Shown here: piece by piece, positions 42,922 to 57,992 of the stretch
How positions within the stretch are numbered: position 1 is the first letter of the stretch
Layout of the letters: the number at the start of each line of letters is the position of its first letter
From: Candidatus Eiseniibacteriota bacterium
Lineage (GTDB): Bacteria > Eisenbacteria > RBG-16-71-46 > CAIMUX01 > VGJL01
Direction: 5' to 3'
Length of the DNA stretch: 64,000 nt
Assembly (NCBI GenBank): GCA_041946735.1
Contig: JBHGAY010000009.1
Coordinates: 64,001-128,000 of the forward strand
The notes under the pieces: generated by a model
Told to the model about the DNA's origin: nothing
The model's input: only the letters and a program-made list of their open reading frames with translations
Databases searched by the model: none
Program-made: the position numbers and the translations under genes

Positions 42922-43074
42922 GGCGCGGAGCGGCGCGCCCAGCGGCCGCGCCGGGAGCTCGCCGGGGCGCCTTGGCCCTGTGCCGGGGGCTCTGCTACGA
43001 TCCGCTGTTCCGCAATGATCCGTTCGAACTTCCCCATGGTTCGAACTTCCCCGTACCCGACGGCAGGAGGACCG

Positions 43075-44757
<1,683 letters not shown>

Positions 44758-44809: not shown

Positions 44810-45670
44810 ATGGCCGAGGAGATGGACCGGCGGTCGCGGGCCCTCCCGCTCGACCGGCTCGGAGTTCCACAGGAGCGCTTGCGTGAAGGCCGGTCGCCGG
44901 TTCTGCTCGAGCCACGCGACCTGTTGATTCTGCCGCAGCCGGGCGGCCGCGCCGCCGCGCATGCGAGTGCGAGCGCAGGCGCGAGCGCAGGCGCAGGCGC
45001 GGGCGTGGGCGGCGCCGCGACGGACCCCGGGCCGGGTCCCTATCCTACGGTCGTCTGCTTCCATGGGATGGCGATGCGCATCGAGCCGATGATTCGCTGG
45101 ATGTCGGACCTCTTCGACACGCCCTGGGCATGGCTCTTTCTCGAGGCTCCGTATCCGGTCGAGCGCAAGATCGGAGGCGTCCGCACCATCGGCTACGCCT
45201 GGTACGCGTTCGACGGCGACACGCCGGCGTTTCGCGACAGCCTCCGGAGAAGCGAGGCGCGGGTGTTGAGCCTTCTGCCCGATCGCGCCTCCGCATGGAA
45301 CCTGGACGTGACGCGGATGGTCGTGCTCGGCTTCAGCCAGGGGGCCTACTTCGCGGGCAGCGTCGGACTCCGCCATGCCGAGCGGTTCCGGGGCATCGTC
45401 TGCGCAGGCGGGCGCATCCGGCCGGCGTATTCCGGACGCTCCCCGGAAACCGTCCCGAAGCTGCCGATCCTCTTCCTTCACGGGCGCGACGACGCCACGA
45501 TCCCGATCGAGGACGCAAGGTCGGCGGCCGAGGAGATGCGAGGGCTGGGCTTTCCTGTCGAGTGGCGGGACGTCGAAGGGCGGCATCGATGGAACCCGGC
45601 GATGTCGGAGGCTCTGCGACCTTGGCTGAGCGAGCGCTTCACCGAGGCAGATCCCCCTGGATCCCGATAA
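44810..45670 (+). CDS. Alpha/beta hydrolase (phospholipase/carboxylesterase family)
   Basis: CFHG, YAWY, GFSQG, HGRDD, GRH. Confidence 0.85.
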   Translation: MAEEMDRRSRALPLDRLGVPQERLREGRSPVLLEPRDLLILPQPGGRAAAHASASAGASAGAGAGVGGAATDPGPGPYPTVVCFHGMAMRIEPMIRWMSDLFDTPWAWLFLEAPYPVERKIGGVRTIGYAWYAFDGDTPAFRDSLRRSEARVLSLLPDRASAWNLDVTRMVVLGFSQGAYFAGSVGLRHAERFRGIVCAGGRIRPAYSGRSPETVPKLPILFLHGRDDATIPIEDARSAAEEMRGLGFPVEWRDVEGRHRWNPAMSEALRPWLSERFTEADPPGSR

Positions 45671-45675
45671 TTCCC

Positions 45676-45877
45676 AAGAAGAAACCCAGGGGCTCTTCGA
45701 ATCTCCTCTCGGATCTTCGTCCCGGATGACCGTCTCCGGGAACCCCTGGGTTCCGGTTACCTGTCGAGATTCCGCAGACGACCTGGCTCAAGCCATACGA
45801 CTGCGGCCAGGCCGCCTAGCGTTCAGGCACCTCACGGGTCTTGGATTTCATAGATTGGACCACCTCCTTTCTCGTGT
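45676..45877 (-). ncRNA. Putative structured small RNA carrying an sORF (unknown family)
   Basis: Own promoter, extended SD, competing hairpins, 13-bp closing stem followed by UCUUCUU; ends inferred. Confidence 0.55.
45816..45851 (-). CDS. 11-aa small ORF MKSKTREVPER
   Basis: AGAAAGGAGGTGGTCCAATCT-ATG AAA TCC AAG ACC CGT GAG GTG CCT GAA CGC TAG. Confidence 0.5.
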   Translation of the reverse strand: MKSKTREVPER

Positions 45878-45883
45878 ACCGCC

Positions 45884-45912
45884 AACATAGGATGAGACAA
45901 CGAGCGCTGCAA
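45884..45912 (-). promoter_or_regulatory. sigma70-like promoter of the small RNA/sORF
   Basis: Minus strand TTGCAG-N17-TATGTT, 11 nt before the extended SD. Confidence 0.6.
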
Positions 45913-45940
45913 GAAGGATGTCGCTGGAGGGCGAACGGGC

Positions 45941-46450
45941 ATGCAGGAGGAAGAAACGTCGCCGTGCCGGCGAGAATCGCGAGCAGGACCGAAGCGGAGA
46001 CGCCCGGCCGAGGCAGGCCCGACCGGGAGCGCCGGGACAGTGATCGTCTACGACGCATCCTGTCCGATCTGCCGAGCGACGGTCCGTGCGCTGCGTGGCC
46101 TCGACGCCGACCGCCTCTTCGAGTACGCCGACGCCTCCGATCGAGACCGGCTTCGCCGCGACGTCCCACAGGTCGATCCCGGGCAAGCGATGGAGAAGAT
46201 CCATGTCGTCCTTCCCGGCGGAGGCGTGCGCGCGGGATTCAGCGCCTTGCTGGCGATCGTTTCGGCGCTCCCCGGCTGCCGTCCGCTCGCTGTGGCCCTC
46301 GGCCTGCCGGGGATCCGCTGGATTGGAGAGAAGGCATACGCCGTGTTCGCGCGTCACAGACCGCGACGAGGAGGAGGACGAGAAGGAGGACGAGGAGATA
46401 CGCATGCCGTGCGGGAAGGCGAGCCGCGCCCCGGTGGACGGGAAGGGTAG
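45941..46450 (+). CDS. DCC/DUF393 thiol-disulfide oxidoreductase-like protein
   Basis: IVYDASCPIC (DxxCxxC), ...YAVFARHR. Confidence 0.85.
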   Translation: MQEEETSPCRRESRAGPKRRRPAEAGPTGSAGTVIVYDASCPICRATVRALRGLDADRLFEYADASDRDRLRRDVPQVDPGQAMEKIHVVLPGGGVRAGFSALLAIVSALPGCRPLAVALGLPGIRWIGEKAYAVFARHRPRRGGGREGGRGDTHAVREGEPRPGGREG

Positions 46451-46796
46451 AGGCGAGCAAAGCGAGGCGGTGCGGAAAAGAAGGAAGCATGGCTGCCGGC
46501 GCGGAGGGGGGATGCCACAAGAGGATGGACAGCCATGCGAGGGACCGCAGGCGCATCGTCGCGCGGAAATGGGCACGGTCCAAGCCAATTCCCTGTCATG
46601 TTCGCGATCCTTCGACCGCGCGACGATGCGCTTCGCTCTCCGCCGTCCAGTTGAGCAGACCGGAGGGGGGACGAGCAGAGCCGAGTCGAGTCGAGCCACC
46701 AAGTCGAGCCGAGCCCCCGAGGCGAAGCGAAGCGATCAGCAGGCCTCCGCGAGGCTTGAAGCTCGATTCATTCCCGCCGCATCGCGTTCCTCCTAA

Positions 46797-49364
46797 TCAC
46801 GCGCATCCCCGTGATGCGTCCCCACCCGCACCGTCCGAAGGCGAAGCAGGGGGCTTCGCGCTCTCCGGGTCCGCGATCCTCTCTCCTTCCGGCTCGCGTT
46901 CCTCCGCGCTCGCCGAATCTCCGGGACCGGGGAAAAGGCCGAGCCGCTTCATCTTTCCGATCAGCGTCGTTCGGCTCAGTCCGCCCAGGGAGCGGGCGGC
47001 GCGCGTGCGGTTCCACTCGTTCTCCTCGAGCGCCTTGACGATCAGCCGGCGCTCGAGGTTCTCGAGGAACGGCTCGAGGCCTCCTGCGGCGCTCACGTCG
47101 TAGGGATCGAAAGCCTCTTCGGCATCGATCGTCGCCGGCAGCCGTTCGAGGTCGATGCAGTCCGCCTCGATCCGGTCCCGTCCGAGAGCGAGGGTGAGAG
47201 CGAGCGCCTTCTCGACGACGAAACGCAGCTCGCGCACGTTGCCCGGCCAGGCGTGCGCGAGAAGCCGGTCGAGCGCTTCGGGAGTCGGGGAGGGGCGGGG
47301 ATCGTCCGGCCCGGCGAAGAGACGCACGAAGTGGTGCACGAGGAGTGGCACGTCCCCCATCCGGTCGCGTAGCGGGGGCAGGTCGATGCGAAGGCCGGAA
47401 AGGCGGTAGTAGAGGTCGCGCCGGAACTCGCCTCGGCGGATCTGTCCCTGCAAGTCGGCGTTCGTCGCCGCCAGCACGCGCGCGTGGATCTTGCGCGTCC
47501 GCGTCTCGCCGACGCGGCGCACCTCCCCCAGCTCCAGAACGCGCAGCAGCTTCACCTGCGCGCGCGGCGTCATCTCCCCGATCTCGTCGAGGAGCAGCGT
47601 GCCCCCGTCCGCCGCCTCGAAGAGGCCGACCTTGTCGGCGATCGCGCCGGTGAACGCGCCGCGGACGTGCCCGAACAGCTCGCTCTCCTGCAGCTCGGCG
47701 GGCAACGCCCCGCAATTGACGGCGACGAACGGGCCGCGGCTCGCAGCCGCCCGGTGGAGGGCGCGAGCGAGAACCTCCTTGCCGGTTCCGCTCTCGCCGA
47801 GGATCAGCACGGGGATCGCCGTGCGTGCGAGCGACTCGATCGGCTCGAGCGCCCCGAGGATCCGCGGGTCGGCGGTGACGAACCCCAGCTGGGACACGCG
47901 CCGCGCGCGCGGCACGCGAGGTGGTCGCGCCGCAGCCGCGGCGGGCGCGGCGGCGGCCGCGCGCTCGCATTCCCGAAGTCCTTCGAGGGCGACGTCGCAG
48001 CGCCACGCGAAGCGGCTCTCCCCGAGCCGATGGAACAGCAGGCGGGCCTCGAGCAGAGACTCTTTCGCCCCCTCCCGCAGGTTCGGCTCCCAGCGGCGCA
48101 CGAGGACCGCTTCGGCGCGCTCCAGCAAAGTCCCGGCCAGCTCTCGCGAGGCTTGGACGCTGCGGTGGAGATCTTCGGCCCATTGGAACTCCGCCCAGGC
48201 GCGTTCCTCCTCCCCATCCTGGAGAGCAAGACGGGCGGCGAGCCGCCGCAGGCCCGCCAGGGCGAATCGATAGGCGGCGCCGGCGAGCCGCGCTCCATCC
48301 ACGCCGGCGGGCAGGACGTCGGAGAGGACCGCACGCGCCTCGGCCGGCATGCGGCGCTCGAGCAGGACCTCGGCGAGGAGGCTTGCCGCCTGCATCCCCG
48401 TCTCTTCGTCCCACGATCCCTTCTCGGCCATCGCCGCCCCACCGCCGCACACGGGGACGTCCGCCTGGACAGAGGCGGCGCTCGCTTCGCGGCAGGCGGC
48501 GCTCGCCTCGCAGCAGGCGGGGGCCGCTTCTCGGCAGACGGCGATCGTTTCGCGGCACGCGGACTCCGCCGCCTCCAACCGTCCGGAGAGAGACAGCAGG
48601 CGCGCGGCGGCGAGACGCGCGCGGGCGCGCAGCTCCGGGATCCTCTCGAGCGCCGGCTCGCCTTGCAGGCGGTCGAGCATGCGGCGCGCGGCGGGCAAGT
48701 CGCGGGCGTCAAGATAGACGTTCGCCGCGGTGAGACGCGCGCGCCCGCGCAGAGCCCAGTGGACCGGGGTCGACCTCGGTCCTCCCCCGCCTCGGAGCAG
48801 CCGCAAGGCGCGCGCCAGGTGGCGTACCGCGCGCGGCGGCTCTCCTGCCCCGGAGGCCGCCAGCGCCTCGCCGATCCGCAGCAGCGCCTCCTCCTCGCCG
48901 CCGCGGCGAGCGAGCGGCACGAGCGCCTCGAATGCCTCCCCCGCCGCCGTCCAGCAGCCGGCGGCGAGGAGCGAGCGGGCGAGGGCGAGCCCGGTCACGC
49001 GGAGCGAGGGTCGGTCCTCGTGCGCGAGCGCGAGCGCGTGCAGGCGGACGAGCTGGGAGCGGACGTCGCCGGCGCCATGCGGCGCCGCGGCGGTCGCCAC
49101 CCGTTGCTCGAGCTCATCGGCCTGCCGCTCCAGATCGAGATCGGCGGCCGGCGACGCCCGCTCGACGGCGTCGGACGTTGCGACATCCTCGAAGAGCGAA
49201 CCGCAAAGGATCGAAGCCGCGGCGAGTGTCGTCGCGTCGCGCTGGGGGACGAGCTCCGTGGGCCCCTCGAATGGCTCGGGCTGCGGAGCTGCGACAGGTT
49301 TCAGAGACACAAGAGACACGAGCGAAGCGAGCGAAACGGGGGACCTCTCCTGGATCACGGCCAC
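46797..49364 (-). CDS. sigma54-dependent enhancer-binding protein with long helical/TPR-like N-terminus
   Basis: [43 protein letters not shown], Fis-type HTH. Confidence 0.92.
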
Positions 49365-55850: not shown

Positions 55851-57992
55851 TCAGCGGCTGAGGATGACCTTCGTCCGGGCGGCGCGGCCGTGCGCCTCCA
55901 ACAGAGCGAGGTACACCCCCGAAGGGAGATCTCTGCCGTCGGCGCCGCGCAGATCGAAAGGCATTTCGTTCCATCCTTCATGGGTGACGGCCCTGGTCTC
56001 CCGCCAGAGACGTCTTCCCGTGGCTTCGAAGATCGTCATGCGAACCATCTCGGACATGCTGCCCGGAGGGGCGTACCAGCGAAGCACCGCGCCCGCCTTC
56101 CAGGGGTTCGGGCTCACCTCGATGCGCCATCCGTCGACGACGGGAAGGAGGTCATCCGTCCCCGACGCCTGCGGCGTGCGGAAGGAGAAATCGGCGCGGC
56201 AGAGCCGGCGATAGCCGTCCGGCTCCTCCGCGATCACCCTCCAGTAGAAGAGTGTTTCCGGCGGCAGCGGGACCGGAAGCGTCCACGTCGTGTCCGCGAT
56301 CTCGGAGTAAACGAGAGGAGTTCCGAAGTCCTGCTCCTCGTCCACCCACACCTCGTAGCGGATCACTTCGCCTTGCGGATCGGCCGACCGGTTCCATACG
56401 AAGGTCGGACGGACGGTCGGAGTCGTCGACCCGTCGGGAGGCTGCTGCAGGCTGAACGGGAGCGGGACCAGGACAGGCGTGTAGTGGATCGCCGCGTCGA
56501 CGTCGATTCTTCCCCACCCGTAGTCGTTGTCCGGATGCGTGTGGCGGTCGGCGGTCGAGATGAGCGCGCGGCGCGCTTGCCACACGCTCCACTCGGGGTG
56601 CGCCTCGAGGACGAGGGCGACCGAGCCGCCGACGAGAGGAGTCGAAAGCGAGGTTCCGCTGGCATCGGTATACGTATCGGTGTCGTTTGCGTCGGCGCAC
56701 CACGTATCGACCCCGCGCGCGACGACCTCCGGCTTCGTACGGCCGTCGGCCGTCGGGCCCCGGCTGGAGAAGTTCGCGATCGAGTTCTCGTTCGAGACAG
56801 CGCCGCAAGCGAGCATCGTGTCGGCGTCGGCGGGCTCCCCGAGGCTCCCGAGGTCGGGACCCGAGTTCCCCATCGCGTTCACGCAGAGAATCCCGCGCTG
56901 CGCGGCGCGGTCGATCGCCCGGGTGATCGGCGCGGTGTCGCCGTCGAGCTGCGCGTAGTCCCATCCCGAACCGTCGTCGAAGTCCTTGTAGATCAGTGAC
57001 GCCGAGGTGGAGGAGATGCCGAGCGAGTCGCCCCACTCGAGCGCGGCCACGTAATTGTCCTCTTCGACCGGCAGCTCGGAGCGGACGTCCTCGGTCTTCG
57101 CGAGCACGAACGTCGCGCCGTAGGCGGGGCCGATCAGATTCCCCGGCGCGTAGCCGCCGCACGCGCCCCACGTCGCGGTGCCGTGCCAATGCTGCGAGGG
57201 ATCGTCTTCCGGCTCGTTCTGCGTGTCGCCGTCGCCGAAGACGAAGTCGCGCTCGGCGAGGAGGTCGGTCTGCTGGAAGGCGTCGTGGTCCTTGCGGAAT
57301 CCCGTGTCGAGCATCATCACGCGGACGCGGGCCCCCGTGTATCCCTCCTGATGGGCGGCAGGAACGTCGATCTCGTCGAGCTGCGCGCGCGAAGGGCCGT
57401 AGATGTCGTCCACGCCGCCGAGCGGACGGCGCAGCCGCCGGGACGGATCGGGCCGCTCGAGCAGCCGGCCGTCCGGCGCCCGTTCCGGTCCCAGGCCCGC
57501 GGACGCCAGCCTGGCGACCGGCCGCACCTCGAGGACGAACGGCAGAGCCGCGATCGCGGCGATTTCCGTGACCGGCACCCGGGCGCTGACCGCGTTCAGC
57601 CAGCGGCTCTCGTGGCGGATCGTGCCATGAGCGGCGACCGCGCGGCGGTAGGCGGGACAGATGGGAAGGTCGGCGTCATCGGCCAGGGCCGCTCCAACAG
57701 CGGCGCGGCGGGCCAGAGCTTCGTCTCCGATCCTCTCCTGGGCTTGTCGAAGGGCTTCGGCGCGGGCGGCCTCCGTCGCGAATCCACGGTCCGCGAACGA
57801 TACCCAGACGATCGCCTCGGAAGGAGGAGCCGTCTCCGAGCGAGGAGCCATACGATCCTCCACGCTCGGACCGGCCGCGCCGATCCGGGCTTGGAGGACC
57901 GGGTGAATTCGACCGGCTCCGGCGTCCCCTGGGAGAGTCGTCTCGAGCAAGCCAAGCCCGAGAATCCCGAGGATCGAGAGGGTTCGTTGCAT
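55851..57992 (-). CDS. Secreted S8 subtilisin-like peptidase with FlgD-Ig/T9SS-like C-terminal domain
   Basis: LDTG, HGT, NAMGN, SGTSLS; C-terminal PNPW...GVYL; start may be up to 58055. Confidence 0.9.
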   Translation of the reverse strand: MQRTLSILGILGLGLLETTLPGDAGAGRIHPVLQARIGAAGPSVEDRMAPRSETAPPSEAIVWVSFADRGFATEAARAEALRQAQERIGDEALARRAAVGAALADDADLPICPAYRRAVAAHGTIRHESRWLNAVSARVPVTEIAAIAALPFVLEVRPVARLASAGLGPERAPDGRLLERPDPSRRLRRPLGGVDDIYGPSRAQLDEIDVPAAHQEGYTGARVRVMMLDTGFRKDHDAFQQTDLLAERDFVFGDGDTQNEPEDDPSQHWHGTATWGACGGYAPGNLIGPAYGATFVLAKTEDVRSELPVEEDNYVAALEWGDSLGISSTSASLIYKDFDDGSGWDYAQLDGDTAPITRAIDRAAQRGILCVNAMGNSGPDLGSLGEPADADTMLACGAVSNENSIANFSSRGPTADGRTKPEVVARGVDTWCADANDTDTYTDASGTSLSTPLVGGSVALVLEAHPEWSVWQARRALISTADRHTHPDNDYGWGRIDVDAAIHYTPVLVPLPFSLQQPPDGSTTPTVRPTFVWNRSADPQGEVIRYEVWVDEEQDFGTPLVYSEIADTTWTLPVPLPPETLFYWRVIAEEPDGYRRLCRADFSFRTPQASGTDDLLPVVDGWRIEVSPNPWKAGAVLRWYAPPGSMSEMVRMTIFEATGRRLWRETRAVTHEGWNEMPFDLRGADGRDLPSGVYLALLEAHGRAARTKVILSR

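Follow-up and report, generated by a model that had tools for sequence, protein, structure and literature searches.

A predicted Eisenbacteria copy of the small RNA Ms_IGR-5, with a Shine-Dalgarno tract pairable with the 16S rRNA tail and a mini-ORF that may serve to engage ribosomes

Introduction

Why would a small RNA carry a ribosome-binding site complementary to the 3' tail of the 16S ribosomal RNA (rRNA) far beyond the usual motif, and offer the ribosome only eleven codons to translate? This question is raised by a locus on the minus strand of a 64,000 nucleotide (nt) stretch of DNA from a Candidatus Eiseniibacteriota bacterium (assembly GCA_041946735.1, contig JBHGAY010000009.1, positions 64,001 to 128,000), which is referred to here as the window and is numbered from its first letter. 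A prior inspection of the letters (the sequence-only reading) had singled out positions 45676 to 45912, and had proposed that a novel transcript of no named family either grips 30S ribosomal subunits unusually tightly or is highly translated into a micropeptide. The analysis presented here indicates that the locus is a copy of the small RNA (sRNA) Ms_IGR-5, the strong ribosome-binding site and tiny open reading frame (ORF) of which seem built to engage ribosomes, not to yield a useful peptide. We give a probability of roughly 0.5 to the proposal that this RNA is a translation-gated switch, where ribosome loading and a short, obligatory round of translation would unfold the RNA.

Family membership and elements of the RNA

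Scanning of the whole window against Rfam at the gathering thresholds returned a single match, namely RF02471 (Ms_IGR-5) at 45676-45877 on the minus strand. This match scores 54.5 bits (gathering score 45), with E-values of 2.1e-9 for the whole window and 2.6e-11 on 801 nt, and spans model positions 1-184 of 184 without truncation. As it lies above the cut-off over the full model, the novelty of existence that had been claimed for this RNA is removed. The locus can thus be assigned as the Eisenbacteria copy of Ms_IGR-5, which occurs once in the source genome and has, as predicted from its sequence, its own promoter and its own terminator. The host belongs to Candidatus Eisenbacteria and not to the Actinobacteria, the actinobacterial host being a descriptive label of the family and not a criterion of the model. 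While the sRNA family is already catalogued, what is added here is its spread to the Eisenbacteria and other phyla, a better-supported fold and an ORF that is conserved as a device.

Ms_IGR-5 was reportedly first described by Li et al. in 2013. No functional study of Ms_IGR-5 or IGR-5 was found in the literature searched, which excluded the original description and the supplementary tables of the cold-stress and NAD-capping papers. The prototype, IGR-5 (= ncMSMEG15794c) of Mycobacterium smegmatis, is located between MSMEG_5794 and MSMEG_5795 and, in the available part of the preprint (bioRxiv 10.1101/2021.12.14.472595), its start was mapped by NAD captureSeq to an A, it is NAD-capped at this +1 A and it is termed 'validated but yet uncharacterized'. 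Ribosome footprints on MS_IGR-5 homologs in M. abscessus and M. smegmatis are reported in the accessible excerpt of PMC4974804, while excerpts of PMC8079986 and PMC8780764 report transcription of the Streptomyces homologs (S. lividans and S. avermitilis). Furthermore, four RNA libraries from four studies (sediment, soil and peat) contain contigs of 36-168 nt over the conserved core, derived from relatives. Some of these extend into the Shine-Dalgarno (SD) tract and then into adapter, and two bridge a P3 helix of different length. In runs X4 and X7, the core contigs pass straight into Illumina adapter at 45851-45869, so that the inserts must be very short fragments. The contigs show that such RNAs occur in RNA libraries, and lend weak support to expression.

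The elements of the RNA, all on the minus strand, are as follows.

45912-45907 and 45889-45884: promoter identified by reading of the sequence, with -35 box TTGCAG, 17-nt spacer and -10 box TATGTT
45877: predicted +1, an A, where the Rfam match begins
45676..45877: whole RNA of ~202 nt, RF02471 Ms_IGR-5 member (cmscan)
45873..45876: P1 5' strand CACG, pairing with CGUG at 45836-45833 (ORF codons 6-7; minimum free energy (MFE) fold and covariation)
45872-45853: 20-mer starting AGAAAGGAGG, which begins 11 nt after the -10 box
45857..45872: extended SD tract AGAAAGGAGGU (45872-45862) and GGUCC (45861-45857, P2 5' strand)
45816..45851: mini-ORF of 11 codons, MKSKTREVPER (ATG 45851-45849; stop TAG 45818-45816)
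45837..45840: P2 3' strand GACC (ORF codons 4-5), which can pair with GGUC at 45861-45858
45824..45831: Px 5' strand GGUGCCUG, the second, 'SD-like' GAGGUG box (ORF codons 7-9), pairing with 45763-45755 (MFE fold)
45773..45821: P3 hairpin, with its base formed by pairing of 45776-45773 with 45821-45816 (last sense codon CGC plus stop codon)
45755..45772: conserved internal loop (G)AAUCYC... (45772-45764), followed by the 3' box CAGGUAACC (45763-45755, Px 3' strand)
45676..45754: P4, branched terminator domain with U-rich tail
45754-45743 with 45692-45681: P4 outer stem
45742-45720: P4a inner hairpin, with loop GACGGUCA at 45734-45727
45719-45695: P4b inner hairpin
45840-45837 with 45731-45728: candidate pseudoknot, GACC with GGUC in the P4a loop

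The promoter, 11-nt gap, 20-mer, T-ATG, MKSKTREVPER-TAG and ~140 nt of further sequence described in the sequence-only reading are all present, with UUUCUUCUU forming the 3' end of the 140-nt stretch at 45676. Homologs were gathered as 147 loci, 120 of which were found with a pattern demanding both conserved boxes and 27 (later 36 rows) with covariance models. The promoter pattern TTGNNN-N16-19-TANNNT, with its end 4-9 nt before the inferred +1, occurs at 108/147 of these loci, compared with 0.5 expected from shuffles, and both promoter and terminator of the RNA are conserved among relatives. The locus is thus best regarded as a stand-alone transcription unit with its own conserved promoter, as had been proposed.

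Pairing of the Shine-Dalgarno tract with the 16S rRNA tail

The 16S 3' end of the source genome is not assembled, with only model positions 9-797 (the 5' half) being found, and the 3' end was taken from the 4/121 genomes of the same phylum that hold one. In these four genomes the 16S gene ends ...GGATCACCTCCTTTCT. The 20-mer is identical to the complement of this end at 17/20 positions, while the first 16 nt of the tract are pairable with the whole 16-nt tail of the relatives, through 15 Watson-Crick pairs and one G-U pair. A match at about 18 of 20 positions had been proposed; the match is real, but its identity amounts to 17/20 and is measured against relatives, the organism's own 16S end being unassembled. 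With up to two mismatches allowed, the 16-mer occurs once in the window, compared with 0.03 expected, and any match was seen in 2/100 shuffles. The predicted duplex of the tract with the 16-nt tail has an energy of -29.9 kcal/mol, compared with -8.7 kcal/mol for GGAGG alone. Among 12,794 windows of 30 nt scanned over the two strands it is the strongest, the median being -7.9 kcal/mol and the next unrelated site reaching -23.5 kcal/mol. The site with this second-best duplex, a GGGAAGGAGGTCATCC-like tract, is located at ~56144-56159 on the plus strand within a GC-rich, coding-looking stretch.

The SD tract is invariant across phyla, and in the predicted fold is displayed as a bulge of 10-12 nt between helices P1 and P2, with 0-1 nt on the opposite strand. 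Exactly 5 nt separate GGAGG from the P1 core in 88/105 unique loci with a perfect 4-bp P1 core; by this strict rule, 26/131 loci had no core and are left out of the count. A spacer of 5 nt equals the length of the 16S tail after CCUCC, and the SD/16S duplex could thus stack on P1.

Conservation of the mini-ORF

An ORF beginning 3-12 nt after GGAGGUG, with a length of 11-19 codons, is found in 147/147 loci. The distance from the GAG of the second box to the end of the ORF is 13-16 nt in 146/147 loci (15 nt in 137) and 23 nt in the remaining one (L143). The start codons include ATG (71 loci), TTG (51), GTG (17), CTG (7) and ATC (1), while TAG (124), TAA (12) and TGA (11) serve as stops; sensing specific to release factor RF1 via an invariant UAG, which was considered, is ruled out by this range of stop codons. 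When only canonical starts are allowed, 129/137 unique loci retain the ORF, compared with 15.9 expected from shuffling of the sequence that separates the two boxes. Seven loci, all from Acidimicrobiia (L039, L048, L066, L105, L130, L134 and L137), have no ATG, GTG or TTG in place and carry CTG 6 nt after GGAGGUG, so that a near-cognate start seems to be used.

The encoded peptide follows a different pattern. Among the covariance-model rows from Eisenbacteria the ORF is present in 36/36, of which 28 read ...EV..., six ...GGGCS (+1 frame) and two ...ARCLV (+2 frame), and all 36 end at the same UAG whatever the frame. GAGGUG itself is invariant in these 36/36 rows, with zero synonymous variants. 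Across the loci, the conserved GAGGUG box is read in another frame in 10/147, including records of the Eisenbacteria families f11 and f16, Latescibacterota and Planctomycetota, to give unrelated peptides, and the N-terminal half of the peptide is hypervariable. One entire family of the Eisenbacteria is among these 10 members. The reading of the box in a different frame with the same stop position suggests that the peptide is not the conserved entity. What appears to be conserved is an open frame with a fixed end point, together with the RNA sequence. Peptide conservation, tested for as a mark of a dual-function sRNA, was not found, the frame differing in 10/147 loci and in 8/36 Eisenbacteria rows. 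Thus, of the earlier suggestions, that of a highly translated micropeptide is weakened, while the combination of extended SD tract, short ORF and stems is retained in the homologs.

Fold and covariation

The 202-nt RNA (45877-45676) has an MFE of -92.7 kcal/mol (z = -4.89), compared with a mean of -71.8 kcal/mol for dinucleotide shuffles, 0/200 of which are as low, and P1, Px, P3 and P4 are all present in the thermodynamic fold of the window RNA alone. A covariance model, R1 (122 positions, 23 pairs), was built and 99 homologs were aligned to it. In this alignment 82.2 % of the cells are paired (72.0 % in shuffles), changes on both sides occur in 16/23 pairs, and the covariation score is 0.311 compared with 0.153 in shuffles, 0/500 of which reach 0.311, and with 0.048 or less once partners are displaced by 1-3 columns. 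The homologs retain the stems, and the structured sequence that had been proposed after the ORF is borne out.

The clearest helix is P1, in which the four bases that follow the inferred +1 are paired with those immediately preceding AGGUG; 4/4 pairs have changes on both sides, 90.2 % of the cells are paired, and at the inner three positions AU, GC, CG and UA pairs all occur in numbers. Changes on both sides are also found in 7/7 pairs of the P3 base (99 sequences), the apical part of P3 being variable in length among relatives. The P2 pairs are 81-100 % standard in a 70-sequence alignment, while in the 99-sequence alignment three are 89-99 % standard and the innermost ~59 %. For Px, counts made by eye showed that GGUG-C-CUG is accompanied by CAG-G in 16/19 rows, with two of the other rows having a continuous GGCACC complement and one being uncompensated. 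Similarly, GGUG-G-CUG is accompanied by CAG-U/C/A, and the lone CUUG variant (L020) by CAAG. The AAU and ACC columns are near-invariant in alignments A2 and A3, and no pairing partner was found for the conserved (G)AAUCYC loop.

The order of SD tract, mini-ORF, P3 and branched terminator is shared with Ms_IGR-5 as modelled in RF02471. The window RNA differs in that its second box is GGUGCCUG, with a compensating CAGG in the 3' box, and in that P1, P2 and Px, which covary here, are absent from the Rfam consensus structure, while the helix by which Rfam joins the SD tract to the segment downstream of the second box consists mostly of non-canonical pairs in the window. Covariation thus supports a predicted fold absent from Rfam, which comprises P1, the bulged SD tract, Px and the placement of the stop codon in the P3 base. 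The Rfam helix, and a pairing of the SD tract with the 3' box, are ~85-87 % pairable with 0 double-sided changes, which speaks neither for nor against them. RNAalifold on a plain MAFFT alignment of 26 homologs returned 6 trivial pairs only, and was replaced by a hand-set structure and the covariance model. A likeness of GGUAACCG, which precedes P4, to the 16S h44/h45 junction was dropped, since this stretch varies among relatives.

A pseudoknot may be added to this fold. The P2 3' strand with its flanks is complementary to the loop of P4a, and both change together among relatives (GGACU/AGUCC, GGACA/UGUCC, GGACG/CGUCC, GGAUG/CAUCC, GGGACC/GGUCCC and CGACC/GGUCG). In permutation tests, the mean longest complement was 5.07 compared with 4.47 +/- 0.14 for 30 Actinomycetota rows (2/2000) and 4.72 compared with 4.21 for 50 rows combined (0/2000), with no pseudoknot signal in 20 Eisenbacteria rows alone (4.20 compared with 4.16). 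The P4a loop is absent where the terminator is simple, as in Eisenbacteria families f11 and f12 and many Acidobacteriota.

Proposed mechanism and alternative explanations

The 5' end of the RNA is clamped to the ORF by P1, and beyond about codon 3 each part of the ORF contributes a strand to a conserved helix, being held in turn by P2 or the candidate pseudoknot, by P1, by Px and by the P3 base, which includes the stop codon; the start codon is located in the P2 loop. The translation-gated switch would build on this arrangement. The bulged SD tract would capture a 30S subunit, and the ribosome, presumably in the source organism as well, would translate the 11 codons, melting first P2 or else the pseudoknot, next P1 and Px, and lastly the foot of P3, where it would stop at a fixed position. 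The melting would free the conserved (G)AAUCC loop and the CAG..CACC 3' box, which are candidate base-pairing regions, and the RNA would refold after the ribosome departs. The availability of ribosomes would thus switch the RNA between its closed and open forms, with the peptide as a by-product, and the open form may serve in target pairing, in controlled decay or nuclease exposure, or in the holding or occupancy of ribosomes. That start codon, open frame and stop position are so strictly conserved suggests that translation itself is needed, unlike in a pure sponge.

Several points weigh against the switch and the structure on which it is built. In 120/147 loci the conservation of the boxes arises by construction, since the search pattern demanded them, and the covariance-model loci alone are free of this bias. 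The C-terminus ...EV(A/P)x(R/S/T) is common to 137/147 loci, so that a peptide role is possible in most lineages. Nothing points to an output or target of the open form, no target search having been made. The metatranscriptome contigs stem from relatives and cover 45806-45851 (one to 45869) and 45733-45753 only. As the 99-row alignment was fitted to the R1 structure, which it hence favours, and as the aligned sequences are related, so that the shuffle controls overstate significance, the fold statistics flatter the structure. Lastly, P2 and two alternative partners of the SD tract are indistinguishable, with 0 double-sided changes, because the tract never varies.

A possible, though distinctly less probable, explanation is that the RNA is a 30S clamp or sponge, which holds the entire 16S 3' tail and thereby parks, protects or checks small subunits. 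It may take the form of hibernation, of protection of the 16S 3' end or of a test of 3'-end maturity, with the ORF providing a way off the RNA. The 16 contiguous pairs with the relatives' tail and their predicted duplex energy, the invariant SD tract displayed as an unopposed bulge, the 5-nt spacer that might permit stacking on P1 and the footprints on homologs in the excerpt of PMC4974804 are all consistent with such a clamp. However, the start codon, open frame and fixed stop are all kept, though needless for a pure clamp, stoichiometric titration of ribosomes from one gene copy per genome is doubtful unless expression is very high, and GGUCC is accounted for by helix P2 as well. The RNA has also been considered as a dedicated 'test message' for the 30S subunit, which would combine whole-tail pairing, ruler-like butting on P1 and an exit only via translation of the short ORF, which unfolds the RNA. 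This we deem rather unlikely; if true, the RNA would serve Actinobacteria, Acidobacteria, Eisenbacteria and other phyla as a means of checking, parking or counting those 30S subunits that are competent for translation.

Unlikely, too, is a functional micropeptide of 11-19 residues with the conserved C-terminus ...T(R/C/S)EV(A/P)x(R/S/T). The box encodes Glu-Val with a similar C-terminal pentapeptide in 137/147 loci, the SD is strong, and the footprints on homologs in the excerpt of PMC4974804 also fit this explanation. It is contradicted by the 10/147 loci that read the box in another frame to give unrelated peptides, by the lack of synonymous variants of the Glu and Val codons in the 36/36 model-derived rows, by the N-terminal half and length, which vary freely, and by the fact that every conserved codon is a helix strand with covariation. 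Furthermore, the codon CCU is fixed in the window's own family and order (12/12 sequences). At the GC content of the window (69 %), this Pro codon is expected to be rare.

Compared with the translation-gated switch, a ligand- or protein-sensing, riboswitch-like RNA, in which a factor bound at the conserved junction and (G)AAUCC loop would govern SD access, is highly improbable, for although an invariant unpaired loop and bulge do occur in a covarying scaffold whose conservation extends across phyla, the RNA has no regulated gene attached to it, Rfam scans gave no likeness to any Rfam riboswitch and nothing seen indicates a pocket.

Comparison with known systems

Dual-function sRNAs such as SgrS/SgrT, RNAIII/hld and SR1/SR1P encode conserved, active peptides, with the base-pairing region usually apart from the ORF. 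The window RNA resembles these in being a small, stand-alone RNA with a short and presumably translated ORF, but differs in that its peptide is not maintained from one frame to another, while its structured core is the ORF itself. Similarly, in leader-peptide attenuators and sRNAs derived from them (trp-type, rnTrpL), translation of a very short ORF is placed to remodel helices before an intrinsic terminator. In contrast to these, there is here no downstream gene, regulatory codons or detectable antiterminator, and the SD is far stronger than in known leaders. The 6S RNA and Ms1 are RNA polymerase decoys, while RMF and HPF are protein hibernation factors that cover the anti-SD. A common logic, judged here from sequence alone, may be that a substrate mimic, in this case of an mRNA initiation region, fills the site of a machine, although the conserved translatable ORF is without counterpart in those systems. 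The conservation of a frame and not a peptide, the use of codons as helix strands and the match to the full 16S tail turn an 'uncharacterised sRNA' into one for which concrete, testable hypotheses can be framed.

Genomic context

The RNA is flanked by the following genes.

44810-45670, plus strand: Abhydrolase_2 gene, convergent with the RNA
45941-46450, plus strand: DCC1-like thiol-disulfide oxidoreductase gene (PF04134, E 2.1e-21), diverging from the RNA

No gene follows on the strand of the RNA, which converges on the hydrolase gene as had been noted from the sequence, with 6 nt between the RNA tail and the hydrolase stop. The start of the DCC1-like gene lies 29 nt from the -35 box of the RNA, so that two promoters would stand back to back, and the same neighbour is found in two relatives (L003 and L010). 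With one divergent and one convergent neighbour, the RNA can be considered a stand-alone unit. Clustering of the flanking ORFs at the 147 loci showed neighbours that are only lineage-specific, such as the GCV_T-like, THAP4/nitrobindin-like and ABC ATPase genes of actinobacterial lineages, with the largest cluster including 26/147 loci; synteny thus gives no hint of function. These observations bear on a cis-acting role, as a leader-peptide attenuator or a regulator of neighbouring genes, for example by read-through of P4 antisense to the convergent gene or by promoter interference with the divergent DCC1-like gene. Attenuators classically consist of a short ORF with stems and a terminator behind it, and both neighbours lie close by. 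Nevertheless, this explanation is very unlikely, given that no co-oriented gene is found downstream, the next gene being convergent here and likewise in 18 actinobacterial loci, that the neighbours vary by lineage, that the ORF has no run of regulatory codons, and that neither the fold nor a pair scan revealed an antiterminator alternative to P4, although no dedicated search was made.

Two other features near the RNA were considered and rejected. An ORF at 45848-46702 on the minus strand, suggested by codon-position GC, has a low-complexity translation with no family match, the real gene being the DCC1-like ORF on the plus strand. A terminator-like hairpin at 45973-45959 (minus) lies inside the DCC1-like gene and is unrelated to the RNA. 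Further out, a methylmalonyl-CoA mutase gene (PF01642, E 4e-230) is located at 43015-44757 on the plus strand, immediately upstream of the hydrolase gene. The minus strand at 46797-49364 encodes a large sigma-54-dependent activator (Sigma54_activat, E 2.8e-61), which also has an HTH_8 domain and ~490 N-terminal residues without a Pfam match. The presence of this gene is in keeping with a host outside the Actinobacteria.

Distribution across bacteria

The RNA was found with R1 in 77/151 sampled genomes of the Eisenbacteria phylum, a tally that includes one unpublished genome (G079), compared with 21/151 for the Rfam model; in the class sample the latter matches 26/151 genomes. R1 finds one copy per genome in the 151 Eisenbacteria-phylum genomes, except for G097 with two matches at contig ends. 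In family f11, R1 matches 30/32 genomes, while the Rfam model matches 0/32, and 0/41 in the class sample. As these counts show, the RF02471 model and its name under-call the family. Members of f11 (e.g. L095, L169 and L174-L182) have a spacing that is 1 nt shorter, their ORF is frame-shifted (...GGGCS) and a simple terminator replaces the branched P4.

A scan for the two-box pattern over 185,579 species genomes yielded at least 120 loci. Among those listed, at least 86 are from Actinomycetota by record title and at least 34 are not. The latter include Acidobacteriota (at least 21), Planctomycetota (at least 4) and Latescibacterota (at least 2), as well as at least one each of Zixibacteria, Eisenbacteria, Sumerlaeota, Binatia, Syntrophobacter, Heliobacteriaceae and Leptospira. 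Both boxes are thus seen in records named for at least about nine phyla besides Eisenbacteria. R1 matches 99/100 of the loci given to it, with weak scores for Planctomycetota and Leptospira (22-28 bits), while the Rfam model, applied to 20 non-actinobacterial loci, matches 10/20 at E <= 0.01 and 3/20 above the cut-off. With record titles that include Actinomycetota, Acidobacteriota, Eisenbacteria, Latescibacterota, Zixibacteria, Sumerlaeota, Binatia and others, the Ms_IGR-5 family is among the few small RNAs of which the 5' part is kept nearly letter-perfect between very distant phyla.

Some lineages show distinctive forms of the RNA. The Acidobacteriota loci (e.g. L043, L055, L058, L065, L074 and L083) have ORFs of 17-19 codons with Ser/Cys-rich N-termini, and their 5' domain, from the 5' end to the 3' box, is ~220-290 nt in length, compared with ~130 nt in the window, with an enlarged P3 insert. 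In three non-actinobacterial loci (L046, L050 and L106), tRNA genes are located within 2 kb of the RNA.

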